DNA of 64,000 nucleotides from a virus (taxonomy: Duplodnaviria; Caudoviricetes). The notes under the pieces are model-generated. The model ran no database searches. It saw only the letters and a list, made by a program, of their open reading frames with translations, and had not been told where the DNA came from. The position numbers were made by a program, and so were the translations under genes. Of the stretch, positions 51,341 through 63,234 are shown piece after piece. Position 1 is the stretch's first letter; every line of letters starts with the position of its first letter. Location: IMG/VR virus record IMGVR_UViG_3300027847_001698. One strand, written 5' to 3'.

Positions 51341-51937
51341 CTAGTCCTTGATTAAGGACAAAAACTCAGTTCTAGTCTGAGGTTGATTTTTAAATTTTCC
51401 TTTCATAGCTGAGGTTATCATTGAAGCATTTTGCTTCTTGACACCTCTACATATCATACAGAAATGCTGTGCTTCCATTATTACTCCGACACCATCTGGC
51501 TTTAAATACATGTCCATGGTCTCGGCAATGTCAACAGTCATTTTTTCCTGAATTTGTAATCTACTGGCAAATATATCAACAAGTCTTGCCATCTTAGATA
51601 ATCCTAATACTTTTCCGTTTGGAAGATAACCTATATGACATACCCCACTAAACGGTAGCATATGATGCTCACATATTGAAGTAAAATCAATATTTTTACA
51701 CATTACTATCTCGTCAGCGAGTTCTCCCTCACCTAAACCTTCTTGGAAGAATGTAGATAACACTGTAGAAATATCATGATTGTATCCAGCATACAATTCT
51801 ATCCATGATTTTACAACCCTGAATGGGGTATCAATCAATCCTTCTCTTGTTGGATTATCTCCAATAGATGCAAGAATTGATTTAACATTATCCATTGCTC
51901 CTGGAAACTTTGCTTCTACTTCTTCTTTAGTTATCAT
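51341..51937 (-). CDS. folE: GTP cyclohydrolase I
   Basis: TPFRV, SICEHHMLPF, LSKMAR, RLQIQE, HFCMICRGV. Confidence 0.97.
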   Translation of the reverse strand: MITKEEVEAKFPGAMDNVKSILASIGDNPTREGLIDTPFRVVKSWIELYAGYNHDISTVLSTFFQEGLGEGELADEIVMCKNIDFTSICEHHMLPFSGVCHIGYLPNGKVLGLSKMARLVDIFASRLQIQEKMTVDIAETMDMYLKPDGVGVIMEAQHFCMICRGVKKQNASMITSAMKGKFKNQPQTRTEFLSLIKD

Positions 51938-54900
51938 TATAATTCCTCTTTTATTTCGTAGTCTAATCCCATAGTCTTTAATTCTGATTGAAATAATCTG
52001 ATTGACTGACTTACGTCATCATCATTTTCATCCAATTTCATATCATCATTTTGGATCATTTTTGAGATAGTAGCATTTCTCTTTTTGATTGAATCCGATT
52101 TAGTGGTAAGAAACTCCCACAAATTAGATTCGGCTCCATGACCTGCTACTGCCCAAACTTCCATTTCTCCTAATCTTTGTCCACCCTTTCTATTCTTGCC
52201 ATCAAGCGGTTGACATGTTTTAGATGAATATGGTCCAACTCCTCTATGGGCTATTTTATCCTTTGATATATGATTCATCTTTATAAAATATTGATAACCT
52301 ACTGCAATCTCATTGATTATATTCTGTTCAAAATAAGATGGATCCTTATTGTGTTCATCATCCCCATAAGGATCATAACACGGATACTCCATTCTGGTTC
52401 CAGTATAATCCATTGCCTCTGATAATTTATCAACTGGGGTTGATTCATACGGAGGCTGAATAACATAGAACGAATCAATATGATTGACAATATACTCTAC
52501 TGATACTGCTTCTAAAAAGAGTTTCATTTGATGAGTATACTCTTTATTTTTAGTACTATCAATAATCTTTATATAGTTTAAAATGAATTCTTTAATTTCT
52601 TCTTCTTCTTCTTTATCTTCGAACTTCTTAACAATAATGTTTCTCATATCTTGAACGGACATTGCCATATGCAACTCAAAGAGCTGCCCAATATTCATTC
52701 TTGAAATCACACCTAATGGGTTCAGTACAACATCTGCACTTTGACCATTTTCTAATCTAGGCATTTCATGTTCTGGAACTATCTTTGAAATGATTCCCTT
52801 GTTTCCATGCCTGTTCCCAATTTTATCACCAACTTCAATTGGTCGTTTATACATTGCTGTTATTTCGAATCTAATCCCATCAATAGATCCACCTTTTACT
52901 TTATACGTCCCTCTCTTCTTCTCAGTGTTATCAATTGCAATTGATTCCAAGAAGTGACCTAACTGATCTTGACTAAGATACGTAGATAGGTTATCAATCA
53001 TACTAGTCCGATCTTTATTCTTTTGTGCTATCAATGATGTCACGAATGTATCATATTGTGGAAACTCTTTATTCCACTTGTTAGCAAAAAGTTTTACATC
53101 AGTGATAACACAATCTTCAGTTACCACCTTTTCAAACGGTTCATCAAATATCATATCCAGACTATCATTAATACCAGTCAATGTCTTTATCTTGGCATAT
53201 ATGTCACCTTTAGTCAAAACATCTCCAATATTAGGAATTCCCTTATATGCAGTTTCATCATCTCCAAGATTCAGTAAAAGCTTATTTGGGGGAACTTCAA
53301 ATGTCAAGTCTAAATAATGAACTGATGTCAATTCATTGTCTTTAACCAATCTATCAGATATTACTATAGCATCTTCAAAGTTATAACCATGCCATATAGT
53401 AACAGCAGTCAATAAGTTTTTACCAACAGTAAGTCTACCTTGTTTCAAATAATTACTTTCTGCAATCATTTGATCCTTCTTGAATGTATGACCTATATCA
53501 AAATAAACATGATAAAAATCATATATAGACAAGAATAACTTTTTGTAACCAATATTAAACGCTTGACATTTCTTGTTATCAAATTGAACAACTATGACAC
53601 TATCATCCTTGAATACCACAGTACCATCTCTAGAAGCGACAAAGCAGAATGAGGTATACTTGGTATACATTCCCTCCACTCCAGATTGTACTAGTGGTAC
53701 ATCGAAGTTTTCTAACATAATAGCATGACGTTGTTGGGAACTAGACATTTGTAATCTAGTTGGATCATCATGTTCTAAAAACGGAACATGTGATATGGCA
53801 ATTGAATTTCTGCAATCACCTTCCCCTTTATTAAACGTCAAATCATTTCCAAGCTGTATTGTTGGTGTCAAATATTGAACTGTTCCACAATTTTCTCTAT
53901 CCCCTGTATCCGCAGGACATACATGACTCTTCATTGAAGGATGTATATCTCTTAGGTATGGAGGAACATTTCCCTTTTCAAATCCACCTGGCCCAGACAA
54001 TGATAACCTAGTTAACATTGCTAACTCTGATAATGGGTTGATTGAAAAGTCAAACTGTACAATTGCAGACTGATTTATATTGTTTAGTATAACTTTAGAA
54101 TTATTCCGAAATCTATTCTTCTTAGATTGTCTCAATGAAACAATCATCTGGTAGAAGTCTCTAGCCAGATGAGAGTAAACTAATTGTTCAGAAAATCTAA
54201 TTCGTTTATTTGAATAGTCTAAATCGTCATTATCCCAATCTCCTAATGAGCTAATCAATTCCTCTAATACATTTGGTGTGGTGAGGAATTCCTTAGTGAA
54301 AATATCTACCTCAGATATTAGAAGAACGTTATTAACAATATCAACGTCCTCTTTTCTATTAAAGTACTGAGATAACAATCTCTTCTTGCTTGAAGGAGAG
54401 TCAATCAAATCTTTAATATCTTGTGCCAAATCGTAATCAATAGTAACATTGGTAGATAACGAATCTTCCTTTGTTATACCAAATCTATCCTTAATCTTAT
54501 CTTCTCCCAAATAAGCATAGACAAGATAACAAAACGGAACTTCCTTACCAAACAGAGTAACATAGTAAAAGTAAGGTCGTCTAAGACGTTGTTTCTTAGT
54601 TAAAGTAAAATTATGAATATTGGTCCTGAGTTTAATTATATCATTTCTTCGAATCAAAGGTCTATCAAACAATTGAAAGATCGAAACTTTTTTGTTTCCA
54701 CCAATAAAGAAATGATTATCTACAAGCCAAGGAATTTCATATTCTAAATCTAACGTCTTATTATCACCATGAACCATCGAAATTTTCAATATTCGAGATA
54801 TTGTTTGTTTTAATTCAGAGCGGTCAACTTTTTCTGGTCGTTCAACAGAAATAGAACTAACTCGAATACCATACTGTTCGCCACATTGCAGCATCTTAGT

Positions 54901-54996
54901 TATATTAGAAACAAGACTGTTTTCCCAGTCTTTCTGTCTAAGATCAAATATATTATGTTTACTTAATATATAATCAGGTACACATAGATTTAACAT
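51937..54996 (-). CDS. Multi-subunit RNA polymerase beta subunit (phage)
   Basis: GDKIGNRHGNKG, NPLGVISRMNIGQ, KMNHISKDK, GGQRLGEMEVWA. Confidence 0.96.
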   Translation of the reverse strand: MLNLCVPDYILSKHNIFDLRQKDWENSLVSNITKMLQCGEQYGIRVSSISVERPEKVDRSELKQTISRILKISMVHGDNKTLDLEYEIPWLVDNHFFIGGNKKVSIFQLFDRPLIRRNDIIKLRTNIHNFTLTKKQRLRRPYFYYVTLFGKEVPFCYLVYAYLGEDKIKDRFGITKEDSLSTNVTIDYDLAQDIKDLIDSPSSKKRLLSQYFNRKEDVDIVNNVLLISEVDIFTKEFLTTPNVLEELISSLGDWDNDDLDYSNKRIRFSEQLVYSHLARDFYQMIVSLRQSKKNRFRNNSKVILNNINQSAIVQFDFSINPLSELAMLTRLSLSGPGGFEKGNVPPYLRDIHPSMKSHVCPADTGDRENCGTVQYLTPTIQLGNDLTFNKGEGDCRNSIAISHVPFLEHDDPTRLQMSSSQQRHAIMLENFDVPLVQSGVEGMYTKYTSFCFVASRDGTVVFKDDSVIVVQFDNKKCQAFNIGYKKLFLSIYDFYHVYFDIGHTFKKDQMIAESNYLKQGRLTVGKNLLTAVTIWHGYNFEDAIVISDRLVKDNELTSVHYLDLTFEVPPNKLLLNLGDDETAYKGIPNIGDVLTKGDIYAKIKTLTGINDSLDMIFDEPFEKVVTEDCVITDVKLFANKWNKEFPQYDTFVTSLIAQKNKDRTSMIDNLSTYLSQDQLGHFLESIAIDNTEKKRGTYKVKGGSIDGIRFEITAMYKRPIEVGDKIGNRHGNKGIISKIVPEHEMPRLENGQSADVVLNPLGVISRMNIGQLFELHMAMSVQDMRNIIVKKFEDKEEEEEIKEFILNYIKIIDSTKNKEYTHQMKLFLEAVSVEYIVNHIDSFYVIQPPYESTPVDKLSEAMDYTGTRMEYPCYDPYGDDEHNKDPSYFEQNIINEIAVGYQYFIKMNHISKDKIAHRGVGPYSSKTCQPLDGKNRKGGQRLGEMEVWAVAGHGAESNLWEFLTTKSDSIKKRNATISKMIQNDDMKLDENDDDVSQSIRLFQSELKTMGLDYEIKEEL

Positions 54997-57749
54997 TCTA
55001 TTTCCGCCACCGGTTTATCATTTGTCATAATTTTTTCGAGAATTCCTGATGATTCCCCATCTCCAGAAATTATTCCATCTATCAAATATGATTTTGGTTT
55101 GCTGAATGCAAGTGCAAGAAGCCATGATTCCCTAGATGGGATCGACTCAATACTAACCATTTCATAATCTGTTATATCTCTTTCCGGATTAACTCTCCAT
55201 CTCATTTTCCCATTACGCATCATTTGAGAGACTATGCACTCATAATGAACCAATAGGACTAATTTATAAGCCGAGTATACACCGAATAGCTTCATAAGAG
55301 AATCGTAATAAGAATTCTTTTCACTTGCATGAAATACTTTCTTTACACGACTCAAATCATTTACAATATCTTGTTGTTGAGAAGCGTCTCCAGTTGATTT
55401 CTTTGCTGCACCTGATGTATGAAACGTTCTTAACACTAACTGGGTTGATACTTCTCCCATTGCTTGTGCTGCAATAATGCCAATGTATTTAGAATGTAAA
55501 TACTTATGACTTGACCCATAACATGTTTGACACACGCCATGGTCTTCACAAAACAACGGAGATCGAACATGTACTAATTGTCCCAGAAATGAATGATAGT
55601 TACCATATGTAATTTCAACTAATCCATCATCTGTTACACTATACCGTCCTATTAGAGACTTTGCTAATTTCAATCCTCCATTTTCCTTCTCGGGAATATT
55701 AATTGCAAGAGTATCTACTGTACCACAATCTTCGTTTTTACCCAATTCAAGATTAACAGAACAATACACCAATTTTCTAGTTAAGTATCCAGAATCTCCA
55801 GTGTTAAGTGCTGTATCTAATAATCCTTTTCTTGAACCATAGCAAGAGATGAAAAAATCATCTCTAGTCAATCCACCAATTAGATTACTCTTAATTGGTG
55901 TTTCAATGATCTTCCCTGCAAAGTTAGAAACAAATCCTCTACACAGCACAATCTGGTTCGCTTGATCCCATGATCCTCTTGAACCCGAATCGATGAATAG
56001 GGAATAAGGGAATGCTTCTCGTACCTTCTCTTGTATTTCTGTTGATTGAATCTTAGAGAATTTATCACCCCACTCTAATTCAGGATCATCCATTATATCG
56101 GACACTATTGTATCAGCGCCTTTTAATAACATATTCTTTAATGACATAGTACAACCAAATCGAGATGTAGACTTAAATCCTAACACCTTTATATCGTCTA
56201 AAATATCACACACTTGATCAGAGTTTCTAGTTCTAGCCAAATCATCCAACAAAACTCTCAACAGTTTTTTATCAATTACTTCATTGATGAATGGATAATC
56301 TGGCAATATGCTATTGAATTCAACTCTTCCTTCGTATGTATCAATGCCATCTGCTATCACCTTTTTAGATTCGTCTTCTTTGGTTAAGAGATATAATCCT
56401 AAAATTATATCCTGATTAACACCAAGAATAAGACTTCCAGTAGTTGGACAGATCAGATTGTTCTTTATAGATAACTTCTCTTTGCATTCTGCCGTGGTTT
56501 CTTCTGTCAACGGTCTATATATTGCCATTTGATCTCCATCAAAATCTGCATTATATGGCTCGCATACCATCGGATGTATTTTAATTACATTGTCAGTATT
56601 GATTAATACATCAAATGACAATATTCCCATTCTATGTAACGTTGGTTGTCTATTAAGAATAACGGATGTACCCTCACAACAGTTCTTTACAACATCTAAT
56701 AATGAGAGATCTTTAATTTTTATACATGAATCAATATGATCTATTGCTGAATCATATCGTTTGAATGTTCTCTTCTCTAGTAATTTGTTTGCTAGTTCCA
56801 ATTTATACAATTCAAGTGCAAGCACATAAGGTATAGAGCATTGATTTAATCTCAAACTAGGTTCAGGTGCAATAACTGCTCTCCCTGAAAAATCAACTCT
56901 CTTGCCCAAAATCGATCCTCTGATCAATCCTGTTTTCTTACTCAACTTCTTGAATATAAAATCATAAAGAGACGTTACATGTCGTTGAAGATTTCTAAAT
57001 GTGGCTTCCCGTATTCCTGCAACCGCAGCAGTTTCTAAATGGTCGTCCTTCATTAAAATCGAGAAATTCAAGATAGTTGTTAAATATCTATTCATCTCAT
57101 CTCGCATTTGAGCATCCTTTGTCTTAGACACTGGTCTAAACTCAGGTGGTAAGATAATTATATTAGACATGTAAAATTTAGACAAGTGAGTCTCAACTAT
57201 TTTCCACATCGCATCTTTATCTTTCTTTCTATCACACTCAAACTTTACGAGATCGTAAACTCCATCAACACCAATAAACACAGGTTTATCATCTGGTAAT
57301 GTTGGAAGTTCCTCTTCATCTGATTCCCTCTCTTTGAATATTCGTTCAACTAATACATAACTAGCCAACTCTTCATCAAAATAATATGCATAAATCTTTT
57401 CATTAAAGAACAGATTCTCTATCATGTCCCTCATTTTTGTCTTTCCTGCCCTAATAATTAATTGATACATAATAGGGTTTAGTATTGGAAAGGGTAACAC
57501 TATTTTTGCAAATCTTTTTCGTCTCTCATTAGAATATGTAATGTCTACATCACATGTTCCACATTTATCTCCAATTCTAGATCTTCCCCAATACGTTTTA
57601 CAACCACACCATGTAGTTTTGACTGGTCCGAATATCTTTTCACTGAAAAGACCTTCTGGGTGAAATCCGTGCTTTGAATAAATTTTAGAACTTGATACTT
57701 GGGGTATACCCTCGCAGAATTCATCTACGTTAAAGAAATCTAATTTCAC
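54990..57749 (-). CDS. Multi-subunit RNA polymerase beta' subunit (phage)
   Basis: GLFSEKIFGP, zinc ribbon, GKRVDFSGRAVI, NRQPTLH, NADFDGD, bridge helix TGDSGYLTRKLV, trigger loop GEVSTQLVLRTFH. Confidence 0.97.
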   Translation of the reverse strand: MKLDFFNVDEFCEGIPQVSSSKIYSKHGFHPEGLFSEKIFGPVKTTWCGCKTYWGRSRIGDKCGTCDVDITYSNERRKRFAKIVLPFPILNPIMYQLIIRAGKTKMRDMIENLFFNEKIYAYYFDEELASYVLVERIFKERESDEEELPTLPDDKPVFIGVDGVYDLVKFECDRKKDKDAMWKIVETHLSKFYMSNIIILPPEFRPVSKTKDAQMRDEMNRYLTTILNFSILMKDDHLETAAVAGIREATFRNLQRHVTSLYDFIFKKLSKKTGLIRGSILGKRVDFSGRAVIAPEPSLRLNQCSIPYVLALELYKLELANKLLEKRTFKRYDSAIDHIDSCIKIKDLSLLDVVKNCCEGTSVILNRQPTLHRMGILSFDVLINTDNVIKIHPMVCEPYNADFDGDQMAIYRPLTEETTAECKEKLSIKNNLICPTTGSLILGVNQDIILGLYLLTKEDESKKVIADGIDTYEGRVEFNSILPDYPFINEVIDKKLLRVLLDDLARTRNSDQVCDILDDIKVLGFKSTSRFGCTMSLKNMLLKGADTIVSDIMDDPELEWGDKFSKIQSTEIQEKVREAFPYSLFIDSGSRGSWDQANQIVLCRGFVSNFAGKIIETPIKSNLIGGLTRDDFFISCYGSRKGLLDTALNTGDSGYLTRKLVYCSVNLELGKNEDCGTVDTLAINIPEKENGGLKLAKSLIGRYSVTDDGLVEITYGNYHSFLGQLVHVRSPLFCEDHGVCQTCYGSSHKYLHSKYIGIIAAQAMGEVSTQLVLRTFHTSGAAKKSTGDASQQQDIVNDLSRVKKVFHASEKNSYYDSLMKLFGVYSAYKLVLLVHYECIVSQMMRNGKMRWRVNPERDITDYEMVSIESIPSRESWLLALAFSKPKSYLIDGIISGDGESSGILEKIMTNDKPVAEIEC

Positions 57750-57763
57750 GTCTAGTTCCTAAT

Positions 57764-58327
57764 TTATGAAGTTGATACACTAAATGATATTGAATTTATC
57801 TTATCTGCAATGATACCGTTAATGCTTTCTTTTAAATCTGAAGTTCTATTAGCTAGTGTGGCGTTTATAGCTGGAGCTAATGTATTATCGAATTCTTGTT
57901 TAATAAGTCTAATTAAATTTTCATCACAATATCGTTCAATTACATCAGTTATTATTGAATGATCTCTTTTAATAACTGCTTCAACTCCTTCCATGATAAC
58001 AGTAGATAGAATATCATTAGTTAACATGTTAGTAACTGAAACGTCTGCACATAGCATATCAAGATCACCATACTTCTCAACACTTTTAAACTTCCACCCT
58101 TTAGTCTGTCTATCATAACTCATTCGGCTATTGTACTTCGCAAACTGTTTCTTAAACTCCTCAATTCCAGTAATACCATAATCCTGTTCTAAGTCTGTAG
58201 ATATAATATGTAACTCTTTTAAGGTAAAACTATCCTGATTATCAAATTCTTCCGTGGCAGTTATAACATCGTTTATTAATGTTTCTATGTTATTAACTAC
58301 AGGAACTGAATTAATTTCATCTGACAT
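57764..58327 (-). CDS. Hypothetical protein
   Basis: 187 aa, coupled between the E2-like gene and beta'. Confidence 0.65.
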   Translation of the reverse strand: MSDEINSVPVVNNIETLINDVITATEEFDNQDSFTLKELHIISTDLEQDYGITGIEEFKKQFAKYNSRMSYDRQTKGWKFKSVEKYGDLDMLCADVSVTNMLTNDILSTVIMEGVEAVIKRDHSIITDVIERYCDENLIRLIKQEFDNTLAPAINATLANRTSDLKESINGIIADKINSISFSVSTS

Positions 58328-59029
58328 TTATTTCTCCTTTAGTATATGTTTAAGAGTTTCAAAATGCTTATTATGCTCATATGGATTATCCATATTTACA
58401 TATCCTAACATCATCTTAGCTATATTTAAAGAATCCGGAGTTAAACACATTCGCTTAATAGCGGAATCCATGCAAAATTTATTATTTAGTGGACTTAAAT
58501 TGGGATGTACACCTGTACAATATAAGCCCCCTCTTAATGTTTTGTCAATAGAAATCTTAAACTCTGTGATTCCATAACCTAACTGCCTTAATTCATCTGG
58601 GTTTGTCCTGATTATTTTTCCATTGTACAGTATCGAATTAATCGGAATATAATCAACCCATATTATCCATTTATTATTAACAAGATATCCTTGTTTTAAA
58701 ATTTCATTTATGGCTTGACATCCTTCAGTGGTAGCGAAATAGGTTAATCTCTTTACATCTGCCATTATCCTAGTCAAACTTGAAGCCAATGAAACGTGTG
58801 CCTTAACTTTACGTGATACTATAAATTTTCTAATGTCCCTTAATACATCAGATAAATTGATTTGAATATCGCCTATTATAATCAACCCTGTCCTATCTTT
58901 TGATAATCTATATCCCGATTTTTGTTTATTTATTAAACATACTGAATACATATTATCTTCATCATAATGTTCCCAATTATTAATATCTGATAACGTTAAT
59001 AATTTTGATACTTCATCTAATATGGTCAC
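58328..59029 (-). CDS. Prokaryotic E2/UBC-like protein
   Basis: HPNLSPLNNKFC (HPN plus Cys 11 residues on; 58472..58507) followed by LGYVNMDNPY. Confidence 0.55.
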   Translation of the reverse strand: MTILDEVSKLLTLSDINNWEHYDEDNMYSVCLINKQKSGYRLSKDRTGLIIIGDIQINLSDVLRDIRKFIVSRKVKAHVSLASSLTRIMADVKRLTYFATTEGCQAINEILKQGYLVNNKWIIWVDYIPINSILYNGKIIRTNPDELRQLGYGITEFKISIDKTLRGGLYCTGVHPNLSPLNNKFCMDSAIKRMCLTPDSLNIAKMMLGYVNMDNPYEHNKHFETLKHILKEK

Positions 59030-59304
59030 GCCGTTCCTGTTAATGGATTAACCGTGACCTCTAAATTGTTATCAAAATCTTTTCTGAACGTCAAAGCAAA
59101 CTTCTTTTGTGGGAATAATGTACATTCTGTTTTGACTTCAGCTTGTACTGTTTTAATAAAATCTAATATTGAAAATCTGGACCCGTCTACCTGTTTAGGT
59201 CTTTTAGAGGAATCAGATCTAATTGATATTTTCATATGTGGATTTTCATATATAAATCCACTTAATGCGTTTTCATTTTCTACTTGGTTAATTAATCGAT
59301 TCAT
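59026..59304 (-). CDS. Small protein, candidate beta-grasp ubiquitin-like modifier
   Basis: Apparent beta-beta-alpha-beta-beta hydrophobic pattern; ends EVTVNPLTG-TA; overlaps both the E1-like and E2-like genes. Confidence 0.35.
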   Translation of the reverse strand: MNRLINQVENENALSGFIYENPHMKISIRSDSSKRPKQVDGSRFSILDFIKTVQAEVKTECTLFPQKKFALTFRKDFDNNLEVTVNPLTGTA

Positions 59305-59851
59305 TTCTTTCTATCCTTTGTCCATCTTGTACATGTGCTCTAAGATTATAAACGTAGTAAGTATTAGGAAATAATAACTCTTTGTCTATTACATTACATA
59401 CTATACTTGTTGCCAAATCTACATATAAGAAATCTTTAGCTACAGAGTATTCGGAATAATCATCTGTAACTTTAGGGTCATCTCTGGTATCTATTATTAA
59501 AGTAGAACCATCTAGTGATATTCTTGCATGACTATTAATTGGTCTAGCCTTATCATCTCTACAATCTAAAATAATTCCTGTCTTATCTATATCCGTCTTA
59601 ATTTCTTTATGATGACAAACCAATTTTCCCAAATCTAATATTCCTAAACTTTCTATTAGGTCGGCTATTGCTACAACCTTTTCCACTCCTGCCATTGATG
59701 TATAAAATGGAGGTTCTACTACCCCATATGATATTACATCTTTGTCATAAATATGATAATCACGAAAAACTTTATTTCTCCAAAGTTTGAAGAATATATT
59801 TGAGCCAACTGTTCCACATCCAACTATCCGAACAATTTTAGTTTCATACAT
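59288..59851 (-). CDS. ThiF/MoeB/E1-like adenylation-fold protein
   Basis: IVGCGTVGS (GxGxxG), IYDKDVI, AGVEKV, ILDCRDD; lacks SNLxRQ and the CxxC zinc sites. Confidence 0.75.
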   Translation of the reverse strand: MYETKIVRIVGCGTVGSNIFFKLWRNKVFRDYHIYDKDVISYGVVEPPFYTSMAGVEKVVAIADLIESLGILDLGKLVCHHKEIKTDIDKTGIILDCRDDKARPINSHARISLDGSTLIIDTRDDPKVTDDYSEYSVAKDFLYVDLATSIVCNVIDKELLFPNTYYVYNLRAHVQDGQRIERNESIN

Positions 59852-60181
59852 TTAAATCTTAATTAAAAATCTACATACTTCTATGTCTTCAGTTTTATAT
59901 TCATATGGTTTTTCATCAACCACAGTTATATCTAATTCCGTAAATGCAGCTCTGGTATTTGATAGAATCTCTCTATTCACTTCAATAATACCTACATTGG
60001 TCGTTATTGATTCAAAGAATCCTCTATACTGGGGAGTAGTTGGTACACCAAATCCCAACACTGATATTTTCTTTTCTTTTAATCGTTTTACTAATGTATG
60101 AACCTTTCTAGTATCATTTCTAATTCTGTCATCTTCCTTAGTACTAAAAGTTGACTTTTTATCCTTTTTATCCGTTCTCAT
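59852..60181 (-). CDS. Hypothetical protein
   Basis: 109 aa; its stop abuts the E1-like start. Confidence 0.6.
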   Translation of the reverse strand: MRTDKKDKKSTFSTKEDDRIRNDTRKVHTLVKRLKEKKISVLGFGVPTTPQYRGFFESITTNVGIIEVNREILSNTRAAFTELDITVVDEKPYEYKTEDIEVCRFLIKI

Positions 60182-60190
60182 TAATATTCC

Positions 60191-60670
60191 CTATAAGTAA
60201 TTCTGGAATTCCCCAGCTCTAAAATCAAATGTACTAATAGCGTTGAATGGGTAACCATTCGTCATAGAATTCATTTTTTTAATACCCTCAATATCATTAT
60301 CAACGTAATAAATCTTATCTACATCAAAATTAATTTCATCATGTGTACCATCTATAATACTTTTTATTGTATCCACTTTATATTTTATAACTTCACTATA
60401 TGTAGTATTGGAATAAAAAATTCTTGGAAGAGTGAATATTTTTTCAGGTTCCATGCCCCTCAACAAACAAACCAAGTAAACAAATGGCTTATCTATCCTT
60501 GGGCGACCTGTTAACACAGACCATCTTACTCCAAAATCCTCATTGGGGTTTATATATGTTCCTGATGTTATACATTGTTTAGTGTTATGTATCAATCCTT
60601 TCCAGTTCGTATCACCACAAAGTGTTCCATCAAAATCAAAAAGGTATAATATATTTCTAGATTTTAACAT
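60191..60670 (-). CDS. HAD-superfamily phosphatase
   Basis: FDFDGT motif I, LTGR motif II, YKV Lys, YYVDND motif IV. Confidence 0.85.
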   Translation of the reverse strand: MLKSRNILYLFDFDGTLCGDTNWKGLIHNTKQCITSGTYINPNEDFGVRWSVLTGRPRIDKPFVYLVCLLRGMEPEKIFTLPRIFYSNTTYSEVIKYKVDTIKSIIDGTHDEINFDVDKIYYVDNDIEGIKKMNSMTNGYPFNAISTFDFRAGEFQNYL

Positions 60671-60688
60671 TAATAACCTCCTCTCATA

Positions 60689-60705
60689 TATAGATATATA
60701 TAGAA
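60689..60705 (-). promoter_or_regulatory. Motif class A at the head of the HAD-E1-Ubl-E2-RNAP run
   Basis: 17-mer identical to 10238..10254, in a 47-nt gap that also holds an AGGAGG RBS. Confidence 0.55.
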
Positions 60706-60717
60706 ATAGCTTTCCAT

Positions 60718-63234
60718 TTAAATACTCAGAACCACATCACTCTCAGCGTCTTGTGTATAAGAGTGTGTAATCAATGTAATGTTTTTATTGTTTGCTAACG
60801 CTTTTAAATTCTGACAAAAAGTAGAAGAATTAGCAGAATCAAGACTGTCTAATACTTCATCCAGTAAAATAATATTAAATGATTTATCATATAGATTTTC
60901 AACTAACTTTCGTAATACCATCATACAACAAACATCAATCTGACGTTTTTCCCCACCAGATAATAACTTATGACTATCTGCCCCTGTTTCTGTATTCAAT
61001 ACATTCACAGAAAATCTCTCTCTGATATCTCCACCTTTTGTTTCAGATAGGGTATCAAACGAGACTATAAATTTACCTGGTGCAATCTTTGTTAGTTCCT
61101 CACGAATTGTCTTATTCATAAAAGGAATAGATCCATCAATTAACATCGACGGTATTCCTTTATCAGAAAATGCAATTTTCCAAAACTTATAAACTTCCAG
61201 TTTTTTATTTCCCTTTTTTATAGAAGCGGCATAATTATTTTTTTCAACTGTCAATTCATTTAATTCACTCTTTACAGAATCTAATTTAGATTCATCTATA
61301 TCAGTATCTTCTTCCAACGTATAAAGCTCATTTCGATTAAAGTCTAAAGATGCTATAAGACGAACAATAGAAGCAGTCCTTCCTTCTATTTCAAGTTTAG
61401 ATTCTAACTGTTCAACTTTCTCTACTTGTATATTAAGCAAATCTGATTCAAGTGTATATTTGGATGATAGAAACTCATTTAATATTTCTTTAGACTCTGT
61501 TTTAGATTTAATATCTATTTCATCTTCTATCTTTATTTTAAATACTTCAAAATCAGATTTAAGTTTTTTCTTTTCAGATTCTATTTGAATAGACAACTTA
61601 GACTTGTTCTCTTGGCATTCATCCATTAGCATATCATATTTTTCATCAATAGCTTTATCGGTTTCTTTTCTGGCAACTATAATAATATCTAACTGTTGTG
61701 TAATATCTAATATACTTGTAGAATTATCTGTTTTCTTTTTATCTCCTGTAGCTAAGAGAGTACTAAGATCTTTCTCTACCTTCTCATTTTCATCTATGAG
61801 TTTTTGTTTATAATCAGCATATAATGTTTTGATGTTTAAGAATTCAGCCTTTATAGCTTCGATTCGATCAGTCTTTTCATTAATTAATTTCTCAATCAAT
61901 TCAGATTGTTCTTGTAAATGTTGTTTATGGCTATTGTCCTCTACCTTTTGATTACACATTAAACATGTATCAAAATCAATTTGGACTTGATGCCTTTTTT
62001 CATTTACTTCACCATTAAGAGCTTTAGCCTCTTGTTTAAGATCCTCTGACTTCTTTATAAGAGAATCAATTTGATCTTGAATGTCATATACATTAACTGA
62101 CTTATTCTTTCGTGCTTTTTCAATATCATATTGTTGACTTAAAAGAACCTTCCCTCTCTCCAATTCAATAAGATCAGATTTCAATTTAGATTCGTTATCA
62201 AACGATCCTTTAATAGAAGTTTGAGTCTCTTCCGCCTTTTGACTTGTCAAGATAGTTAATGTGTCAGCCAATGTTGTGAGCTTTTGTCCCAATGTTTCAC
62301 GGGTATTCGAGAAACTAGTGTCTAACTCATTTTTCATTTTAGACAAGATATCATCTTTTTCTCTTACTAGCTTACTGATAAGATTCTCTTGTTTCTTCTC
62401 TTTAGCTTCTTCCAATCCAAATAATTCATCTGACATTTTAACTATATCTACATCTATATGGACTAGTTTTTTATTTATAGAATCCAGATCTTTCTTTGTT
62501 TTATCTTCATCAAGATCGTTAAGATCCTTTTCCATTAACGGTATTCTAATAGTCAAATCTTTAATTCTATTAGCAAGATCATCTTTCTGTGCCTGAATAA
62601 ATGCAGATGTTTCAGTCAACAGAGTTTCTTTTTCTTCAAGTCTAACTTCTATTTTGTCAAACTCTCTACTCTGATTATCAACTTCTATAGTGAGAGTTTT
62701 AGAATCTTCGTCTATATATTCTTTATATCTTTTCCATTCCTCAAGTTGTAGGATAGATGAAAAAATTTGCTTTTGTTGAGAATCATTCAACGACGTAAAG
62801 AAATCCTTAACTTGCTGAGAAAAATAAATACTATTTAAAAAAACTTGTTTAGGAACTAAAATCTGCTCTATTCTCTTATATGTATCAGTTGTAGTTTTCC
62901 CTGAAATGTCAGTTCCATTCAGATACAAATACAACTTATTAGAATGTTTAGAATGTTTATAATAACGCTTTATTAGATATTCATCAGTGTCCACTAGAAA
63001 ATCTACTTCTACTTCGAGATTTTTCCCTTCCTTTTTATTTACTAAATCTGGAAGTTCAATTCCTTCTGCTGTTTTCCCATATAAGGCAATCATTAAAGCC
63101 ATAAAATAAGAAGACTTTCCTTTACCATTTGGTCCAACAATAGATACTAATTTATTATTAGGGAATTCTAATTCTGTTTCAATGTGACATCTAAAATTTA
63201 CTAACTTTACTTTATTAAATTGGATATTTTTCAT
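60718..63234 (-). CDS. SbcC/Rad50/gp46-like recombination ATPase
   Basis: GPNGKGKS, coiled coil with CLMC zinc hook, LSGGE signature, LLDEVLDSLD. Confidence 0.96.
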   Translation of the reverse strand: MKNIQFNKVKLVNFRCHIETELEFPNNKLVSIVGPNGKGKSSYFMALMIALYGKTAEGIELPDLVNKKEGKNLEVEVDFLVDTDEYLIKRYYKHSKHSNKLYLYLNGTDISGKTTTDTYKRIEQILVPKQVFLNSIYFSQQVKDFFTSLNDSQQKQIFSSILQLEEWKRYKEYIDEDSKTLTIEVDNQSREFDKIEVRLEEKETLLTETSAFIQAQKDDLANRIKDLTIRIPLMEKDLNDLDEDKTKKDLDSINKKLVHIDVDIVKMSDELFGLEEAKEKKQENLISKLVREKDDILSKMKNELDTSFSNTRETLGQKLTTLADTLTILTSQKAEETQTSIKGSFDNESKLKSDLIELERGKVLLSQQYDIEKARKNKSVNVYDIQDQIDSLIKKSEDLKQEAKALNGEVNEKRHQVQIDFDTCLMCNQKVEDNSHKQHLQEQSELIEKLINEKTDRIEAIKAEFLNIKTLYADYKQKLIDENEKVEKDLSTLLATGDKKKTDNSTSILDITQQLDIIIVARKETDKAIDEKYDMLMDECQENKSKLSIQIESEKKKLKSDFEVFKIKIEDEIDIKSKTESKEILNEFLSSKYTLESDLLNIQVEKVEQLESKLEIEGRTASIVRLIASLDFNRNELYTLEEDTDIDESKLDSVKSELNELTVEKNNYAASIKKGNKKLEVYKFWKIAFSDKGIPSMLIDGSIPFMNKTIREELTKIAPGKFIVSFDTLSETKGGDIRERFSVNVLNTETGADSHKLLSGGEKRQIDVCCMMVLRKLVENLYDKSFNIILLDEVLDSLDSANSSTFCQNLKALANNKNITLITHSYTQDAESDVVLSI

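Follow-up and report, generated by a model that had tools for sequence, protein, structure and literature searches.

In a 64,000-nucleotide stretch of viral DNA (Duplodnaviria, Caudoviricetes; called the window below), which is part of the 193.5-kb IMG/VR virus record IMGVR_UViG_3300027847_001698, three overlapping genes on the minus strand between positions 58328 and 59851 encode an E1/ThiF-like protein (E1'), a 92-aa protein that is a candidate modifier (the tag) and an E2-like protein (E2'). We read this cassette as a reduced, phage-owned ubiquitin-type protein-conjugation module and as a paralogue of a full operon of the same phage; we put the probability of this reading, the mechanism of which we infer, at roughly 0.55. 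An earlier note on this DNA, made from the letters alone, had proposed an E1-like, ubiquitin-like (Ubl) and E2-like set at this place. The three overlapping open reading frames (ORFs) it described were located on the minus strand, E1' (187 aa) at 59288-59851, the tag at 59026-59304 and E2' (233 aa) at 58328-59029, and all motifs it quoted were found, on invariant alignment columns. The E1' and tag genes share a 17-nt overlap, and the TGA stop of the tag gene overlaps the GTG start of the E2' gene.

An exhaustive HMMER search with E1' returned 62 family representatives of about 180 aa each. The related loci share the gene order SbcD, SbcC, a protein of 155-169 aa with the motif FDFDGT, a protein of about 120 aa, E1', a gene for 84-101 aa and a gene for 184-263 aa; after E2' follow one or two variable genes and then the beta' subunit of an RNA polymerase (RNAP). 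E1' is followed by a small Ala-terminated ORF in at least 17 loci, and at least 14 of the related loci also carry E2'. The trio is kept in every related locus with enough sequence, the tag gene always lying between E1' and E2'. Since trio and order are kept in all adequate loci, the genes are real and under selection as a unit. Taken together, the motif set and the conserved order are far beyond chance.

E1' is a minimal adenylation-domain protein of the ThiF/E1 type. Compared with solved E1 structures, its family profile matches Uba1, MccB, SAE2, UBA5, TcdA, NAE, MoeB, ThiF, Cap2 and PaaA with E values from 2e-10 to 1e-4, which, with an hhalign probability of 97.9% against the E1 of the full operon (see below), bears out the ThiF/E1-type fold assigned in the earlier note. 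The best-scoring PDB entry is Uba1, matched in two stretches (residues 26-111, 22.5 bits, and 419-501, 18.7 bits), while the best match in a single stretch is MccB (40.9 bits, E 6e-10). As a single sequence E1' matches seven PADLOC Cap2 'E1-E2' models (E 2.5e-4 to 0.04, only E1' residues 3-98 being covered) and, weakly, the NCBIfam ThiF model (E 1e-4); it stays below the cut-off of Pfam PF00899 (11.8 vs 28.1 bits). Membership of E1' in the E1/ThiF-MoeB superfamily (Pfam PF00899 clan) is thus supported at the level of sequence profiles. The protein has both the GxGxxG and the Mg/ATP Asp motif (DxxD), in the form of GCGTVGS (residues 11-17), DKD (36-38), K58 and DCRD (96-99); these residues represent the Rossmann P-loop together with the Mg/ATP motif DCxD, and DCRD we take to correspond to the DCTD Mg-binding motif of MoeB and ThiF. 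In an alignment of 50 sequences G11, G13, G16, D36, D96, D99 and Y135 are invariant, and C12, D38, K58, C97, R98, K101, S112 and D114 nearly so. The invariance of the nucleotide-site residues argues against a decayed pseudoenzyme.

The family alignment also agrees with the earlier statement that SNLxRQ and zinc motifs are lacking. The NLxR position is variable, no CxxC...CxxC zinc-site cysteines are seen, and the only conserved cysteines are C12 within GCG and C97 within DCRD. E1' starts 5-6 residues ahead of strand beta1 and therefore has no N-terminal Arg-finger helix. Downstream of the core Y135 is the sole invariant residue; judged from the alignment it may lie in the crossover loop.

For E2', the HPN motif occupies residues 175-177 (codons 58499-58507) and is followed, after eight further residues, by C186 (codon 58472-58474) and a tail of the form L..N...PY. 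Alignments of 17 homologues each were used for E2' and for the tag. Over the E2' alignment H175, P176 and C186 are invariant (C186 in 17/17), two of the 17 sequences have His in place of N177, and the spacing reads HP(N/H)-x8-C. AlphaFold2 on the single sequence was uninformative (predicted local distance difference test, pLDDT, 32.5), and the alignment-based model was used (17 sequences; pLDDT 91.9, predicted template-modeling score 0.74). In this model residues 1-95 form an N-terminal domain, which is followed by an alpha/beta domain with the ubiquitin-conjugating (UBC) fold at the C-terminus (about residues 96-233; 58331-58744, minus strand), and the model places HPN and Cys after strand beta4 and before the next helix, as in E2s. 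When the model was compared with 48,161 representative PDB chains by VIA-align, E2/UBC enzymes took the top 15 ranks (Z 6.5-5.4, root-mean-square deviation (rmsd) 3.5-4.5 Å, 111-130 aligned residues within model residues ~90-232). UEV and RWD domains and Citrobacter BubCD-BubB rank after the E2 enzymes (9eav_D, BubCD-BubB: Z 4.9, rmsd 3.5 Å, 96 residues). Against clusters of the AlphaFold database (AFDB) E values of 2.2e-5 and 4.3e-5 at a probability of 1.00 were obtained, the second match being annotated 'UBC core domain'. Foldseek against the PDB gave none at E <= 1e-3 and a list dominated by E2 enzymes, and the E2 rows obtained from Swiss-Prot and BFVD were weak throughout. When the Atlas was searched by shape, the two-domain model returned mostly unrelated large proteins and one UQ_con row (TM-score 0.38, rmsd 3.8 Å, 119 residues). 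By sequence, E2' has no match in Pfam, PHROGs, PADLOC or NCBIfam.

Model, structure searches and the invariant Cys support a predicted UBC-type fold for E2', as the earlier note had proposed from HPN-x8-C; neither a fold other than UBC nor loss of the Cys was found. Cys186 is the putative active-site cysteine with a predicted thioester role. The N-terminal domain varies in size, shorter homologues of 184-210 aa (loci L005, L006, L021, L022, L045, L050) being devoid of the beta-sheet segment at residues 17-55. Its absence from these homologues suggests a variable module, possibly for target recognition. A metallopeptidase reading of this domain was rejected, as the HtpX/SprT/IrrE rows were weak and no HExxH motif is present.

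The 92-aa protein ends in VTVNPLTGTA. Its Ala92 (codon 59029-59031) is invariant in 17/17 homologues, none of which has a residue after it. The conserved tail reads P-(V/I/L)-(T/P)-x-(T/A/S)-A with a nearly invariant P87; position -2 is T/A/S/V and position -3 is G/S/C/D/N. Further inside the protein P65 is invariant, usually within an LPH motif. The earlier note had read the terminus as a Gly with a trimmable extension of two residues. Maturation of this kind was rejected in view of the variable -3 position and the invariant, never extended Ala, and a Ubl-type C-terminal Gly or Gly-Gly, direct or after trimming, is not a feature of this family. A conserved free Ala tail is what one would expect if the protein were a substrate and its carboxylate entered an adenylation site, which would suit a tag; other readings of the tail are possible. 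In one relative (L048:562-1125) the gene after E1' encodes 187 aa ending in NPVSGVA, an N-terminally extended candidate tag. No match to the 92-aa protein was found in Pfam, PHROGs, PADLOC or NCBIfam, and a sigma-factor reading was rejected, the FliA (sigma-28) match in the PDB profile search having an E value of 0.31.

These three proteins might also serve a chemistry other than conjugation. E1' could make a thiocarboxylate carrier (as for ThiS, MoaD or TtuB) or a nucleotide adduct (as MccB does), the Cys/His protein being a sulfur-relay or processing enzyme, e.g. in nucleic-acid modification. Size and architecture of E1' are those of non-conjugating bacterial E1-like enzymes, it has no crossover-loop Cys, and MccB is its best single-stretch match. 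The third protein, however, has a predicted UBC fold with HPN...C, unlike a rhodanese, PP-loop or MoaE-type partner. The tag has an x-Ala terminus where sulfur carriers have Gly-Gly, and E1', which begins at strand beta1, has no MccB-type N-terminal peptide clamp. We thus consider a non-conjugating role quite unlikely.

The reading as a paralogue is drawn from a second gene set in the same gene array. A full operon for Ubl (ending in NKAA), E2, E1 and JAB peptidase (module 1; window-equivalent positions 64295-68710, L051:1295-5710, minus strand) comprises the four genes upstream of SbcD and lies 295 bases beyond the window end, 5 kb upstream of the minimal cassette (module 2). The earlier note had remarked that no JAB peptidase is seen; this holds within the window, but not beyond it, since the module-1 operon 295 bases past its end includes a JAB/JAMM gene. 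This JAB protein of 288 aa has an exact JAMM motif with E66, H113, H115, S123 and D126 invariant among four homologues, three of which give a weak Pfam Prok-JAB match. The module-1 E1 is a ThiF-family protein of 256 aa (Pfam 5e-22) with RQ and SNLNRT motifs. The E2 (707 aa) contains HPNVSSDGSVCL and matches Pfam UQ_con at 2.9e-4 over residues 405-465, in a central UBC-like domain. The module-1 tag has 202 aa and ends in NKAA. This motif is invariant in module-1 tags and is followed by extensions in 2/4 phages (one residue and sixteen residues), and these extended forms resemble a precursor that would be trimmed by the JAB peptidase. Given the invariance of NKAA, activated tags in this clade would as a rule end in Ala. 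Nothing significant came out when the PDB was searched with sequence profiles from the alignments of E2', tag, JAB, large E2 and module-1 tag.

Both modules are carried by this genome and by 3/3 related viral contigs searched. In hhalign the whole of E1' can be aligned to the 256-aa E1 (probability 97.9%, E 5e-13, 154 columns); common to both are GxGxxG, D, K, DCRD, another two Asp and one and the same invariant Tyr. The E2 domain of the 470-707-aa family aligns with the UBC domain of E2' (probability 89%, E 2.3e-6), HPN, Cys and the helix L..IN.D..Y being in register. As E1' and E2' are homologous to the module-1 E1 and E2, the cassette is, judged from these alignments, a reduced paralogue of module 1. 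Both candidate tags end in a small residue plus Ala; hhalign finds no similarity between them (probability 0.1-0.2%), and paralogy of the two tags is thus not supported. Compared to module 1, the cassette is smaller throughout (E1 187 vs 256 aa, E2 184-263 vs 470-707 aa, tag 84-101 vs 192-215 aa) and is ordered E1-tag-E2 rather than tag-E2-E1-JAB. It has no JAB of its own, the Arg finger and SNLNRT motif of the 256-aa E1 have no counterpart in its E1', and its tag is never extended at the C-terminus, unlike some module-1 tags. The cassette may therefore not be a stand-alone system.

One could go further and regard E1' and E2' as accessory subunits of module 1 with no second cascade: E1' would then form a heterodimer with the 256-aa E1 and resemble an inactive adenylation domain, as SAE1 or NAE1 do with their partners in eukaryotic E1s, E2' would serve the NKAA-terminated tag as an additional E2 or a UEV-like cofactor, and the 92-aa protein would be an adaptor or substrate and not a tag. 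Several observations fit, among them the absence of Arg finger and NLxRQ, as in inactive adenylation domains, and the fact that the better Uba1 stretch of the E1' profile (residues 26-111) lies in the N-terminal half, presumably the inactive adenylation domain of that enzyme. The paralogy of E1' and E2' to the module-1 enzymes, the joint presence of both modules in this genome and in 3/3 related contigs, and the single JAB point in the same direction. However, the nucleotide site and DCRD of E1' and the His, Pro and Cys of E2' are invariant or nearly so, which is unusual for non-catalytic partners. The invariant Ala of the tag and its fixed place between the enzymes are hard to explain for a mere adaptor, and the three genes are translationally coupled to each other and not to module 1. 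On balance an accessory role appears rather doubtful to us.

If the cassette is a conjugation module, E1' would bind ATP and Mg via its GxGxxG and DCRD site and would adenylate the C-terminal carboxylate of the 92-aa protein, whose Ala-ended P-V-T-x-x-A tail would reach into the active site. Once activated, the tag would move to Cys186 of E2' and from there to a target amine, without an E3. The transfer to Cys186 could be direct or could proceed via a Tyr135 oxyester as in bacterial Bub E1s, and the neighboring JAB peptidase could reverse the modification. Both arginines that contact ATP are missing from E1', which may for this reason depend on dimerization with the full-size E1. Should the 92-aa protein be the tag, the E1' pocket must accept Ala, and likewise the pocket of the module-1 E1.

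A number of points weigh against the proposed conjugation. According to the family alignment E1' has no N-terminal Arg finger, no NLxRQ arginine and no crossover-loop Cys, so that by itself it may be unable to adenylate or to transfer. None of the 17 E2' family members matches Pfam UQ_con or Prok-E2, and UBC Z-scores of 5-6.5 are moderate in absolute terms. The tag shows no detectable similarity to any Ubl, the module-1 tag included, in profile, PDB and hhalign searches. Its low-confidence Atlas model (pLDDT 0.57) has the beta-grasp entries TGS, Prok_Ub and AUX/IAA-PB1 among ten neighbor rows at TM-scores of 0.44-0.53, and the model of a homologue (pLDDT 0.49) has no beta-grasp neighbors. In favor of conjugation, prediction of the complex of E1' and tag with ESMFold2 gave weak support, with a score of 0.41 compared to 0.00 for the best of three controls and no interface reported; at least 51% of the contacts agreed between runs, and the partner pLDDT was at least 83. 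The mark applied is reached by 58 of 80 solved complexes and by 2 of 110 mismatched pairs, and passes at a score of 0.60 or below comprise seven of the 80 solved complexes and both passing mismatches; the tool itself warns that most passes of this sort are wrong, unless the pairing was already likely before the prediction.

The genomic setting offers a hint on possible targets. Downstream of the cassette, at 51937-57749 on the minus strand, lies a multisubunit phage RNAP (Pfam RNA_pol_Rpb1 domains 2, 3 and 5) with beta' at 54990-57749, followed by beta at 51937-54996. The subunits are unsplit and compact, the beta' of 919 aa being encoded ahead of the beta of 1019 aa. That the cassette stands directly upstream of beta'/beta, as the earlier note had described, was also seen in the synteny survey, where beta' lies downstream in 11/11 loci reaching far enough. 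This fixed place suggests targets within the transcription machinery, or else activity of the module at the same infection stage. An extended version would be a two-tier tagging by the phage, in which E1' and E2' attach the Ala-ended tag to phage or host transcription machinery and thereby switch or protect transcription, with no need of a terminal Gly and possibly through a Tyr oxyester; we regard it as unlikely. The same position could point to three non-enzymatic accessory or assembly factors of the RNAP that merely retain E1-like and UBC-like folds. Phage multisubunit RNAPs are known to do without alpha and omega and to have additional subunits that are unrelated to these, which would leave room for such factors, as would the marginal sigma-28 match of the tag profile (E 0.31). 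That match is not significant, though, and synteny alone is weak evidence for physical association. Moreover, the strictest conservation falls on residues of catalytic type (nucleotide site, DCRD, His-Pro-Cys and the C-terminal Ala), and we hold RNAP factors of this kind to be very unlikely.

Co-transcription of the cassette with the RNAP, also put forward in the earlier note, we infer from gene spacing only; it would be in keeping with the tight junctions between 109-aa gene and E1' and between E2' and the next gene, in both of which an ATG directly follows a TAA. Scans for promoters and terminators gave no excess over shuffled expectation. The 109-aa protein directly upstream of E1' (59852-60181, minus strand) is present in 14/14 aligned loci, with relatives of about 110-150 aa. 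A single Arg is its sole invariant residue over these loci, no invariant residues of catalytic type were seen, and no family match was found in Pfam, PHROGs, PADLOC or NCBIfam. Between SbcC and the cassette a protein of 159 aa is encoded (60191-60670, minus strand), whose HAD-like DxDGT motif (FDFDGT) and position are conserved in relatives. It has no Pfam match at E<=1, and a HAD membership is suggested by the motif only. The gene between E2' and beta' (57764-58327, minus strand) encodes 187 aa; in relatives it is variable (82-220 aa), length and gene number differing among loci, and a K-x-EF...APAI block is common to the alignable ones.

The source of this DNA is a marine myovirus-like phage of an uncultured clade. 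The window encodes tail sheath, baseplate wedge, large terminase and Dda-like helicase, and therefore stems from a large tailed phage. In the phage collection its beta' is matched best by bacterial rpoC genes and Rhizobium-phage beta' genes, at only about 28-31% identity; with the closest beta' of a cultured phage at about 30%, the clade is an uncultured one. Blastn and tblastn of the region, of E2' and of E1' against 50,697 phage records gave no match. A word search of 5.8 billion proteins with the 233-aa E2' found only E2' itself until a three-sequence profile was used, and pattern scans of viral contigs with E2' found no relatives. In 185,579 prokaryote genomes a pattern-based, non-exhaustive scan revealed no full-length relative and only distant partial ThiF-like matches; within that scan there is thus no sign of the module in cellular genomes.

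Seawater and marine metagenomes from over ten studies contain near-identical DNA (window positions 57500-60800), which shows a wide distribution of the phage in the ocean. Contigs matching parts of E2', the tag, E1', the 109-aa gene and the downstream gene exactly were found in three seawater metatranscriptome libraries from three studies. These fragments are compatible with transcription and no proof of it, as the contigs show neither strand nor ends, and it counts further against our reading that contigs from RNA libraries might stem from carried-over DNA. On many viral and metagenome-assembled-genome contigs from gut metagenomes (L012-L017, L029-L043, L064-L068) distant ThiF-like proteins occur, with 25-36% identity over the N-terminal 60-140 residues. 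They may be part of other phage-borne E1 cassettes.

Selection has maintained two paralogous E1/E2/tag sets in a phage lineage that is abundant in seawater, and in one of these sets E1 and E2 have been reduced to about the minimum size at which they could function. To our knowledge bacterial Ubl conjugation (CBASS Cap2, Bil, Bub) has so far been characterized as host defence against phages. The earlier note knew of no characterized phage-encoded counterpart, and in the literature, covered in open-access papers and preprints, no described phage-encoded E1/E2/Ubl system was found. If the cassette is active, phages themselves would use ubiquitin-type tagging, its chemistry would extend to Ala-terminated tags and Cys-less E1s, and a minimal, genetically compact E1-E2 pair would become available for mechanistic study. 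The fixed linkage to the phage RNAP yields a concrete, testable hypothesis on the target. If the two-tier tagging of transcription were true, this would be the first ubiquitin-like system of a virus of bacteria that serves offence or self-regulation and not host defence.

Among known systems, Bil (BilABCD) is similar in that Ubl, E2, E1 and JAB lie close together and no E3 is present. As neither Bil nor the cassette has an E3, the E2 is presumed to choose the targets. Bil systems are bacterial, ISG15-like anti-phage systems (10.1101/2023.09.26.559546; 10.1101/2023.09.04.556158), and their E1 comprises three domains (IAD-AAD-CYS) and has a catalytic Cys (PMC11601596; 10.1101/2023.09.26.559546). 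E1', in contrast, is a single domain of 187 aa without catalytic Cys, and the cassette is phage-encoded whereas Bil is a host-encoded defence. In type II BilA the reactive Gly97 is conserved, and the terminal Ala98 blocks ATP binding and must be trimmed (10.1101/2023.09.26.559546). The tag also ends in Ala, but in its family this Ala never varies, and the Gly position does. Two defining features of Bil, a three-domain Cys E1 and a conserved Gly, are therefore absent from the cassette.

The Bub systems (6E / DUF6527) use a minimal E1 of homodimer type without crossover-loop Cys, a single invariant Tyr (Y370 of BubCD) carrying the Ubl as an oxyester (PMC11601596). Such a Cys is likewise missing from E1' and its 256-aa paralogue, which have one invariant Tyr in common after the adenylation core, a likeness seen in the alignment. 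The Bub E2 works by Ser and His through oxyesters, and the Bub Ubl ends in Gly (PMC11601596); E2', unlike it, has an invariant Cys with HPN. Bub operons further contain E1-JAB or E2-E1 fusions and a DUF6527 serine protease (PMC11601596). Among the operon proteins scanned here no DUF6527 match was found in Pfam.

Cap2 of type II CBASS provides the best PADLOC matches of E1', and Cap2 structures appear in the profile search at E 1.7e-5. Cap2 is one fused E1-E2 polypeptide that conjugates the C-terminus of the CD-NTase, and Cap3 is a JAB peptidase. The cassette differs by its separate genes, its dedicated small protein and the absence of a CD-NTase from the operon, the other proteins of which have no CBASS match in PADLOC. 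MoeB, ThiF and UBA5 resemble E1' as small single adenylation domains (profile similarity E 2e-8 to 6e-9). They keep Arg finger and NLxRQ, and MoeB and ThiF also the CxxC zinc site, whereas E1' has none of these; their carriers end in Gly-Gly, and MoeB and ThiF have no E2 partner, in contrast to the cassette. Compared with these systems, the new element would be a phage-owned minimal conjugation set, fixed beside the RNAP, with an Ala-terminated tag and a Cys-less E1.

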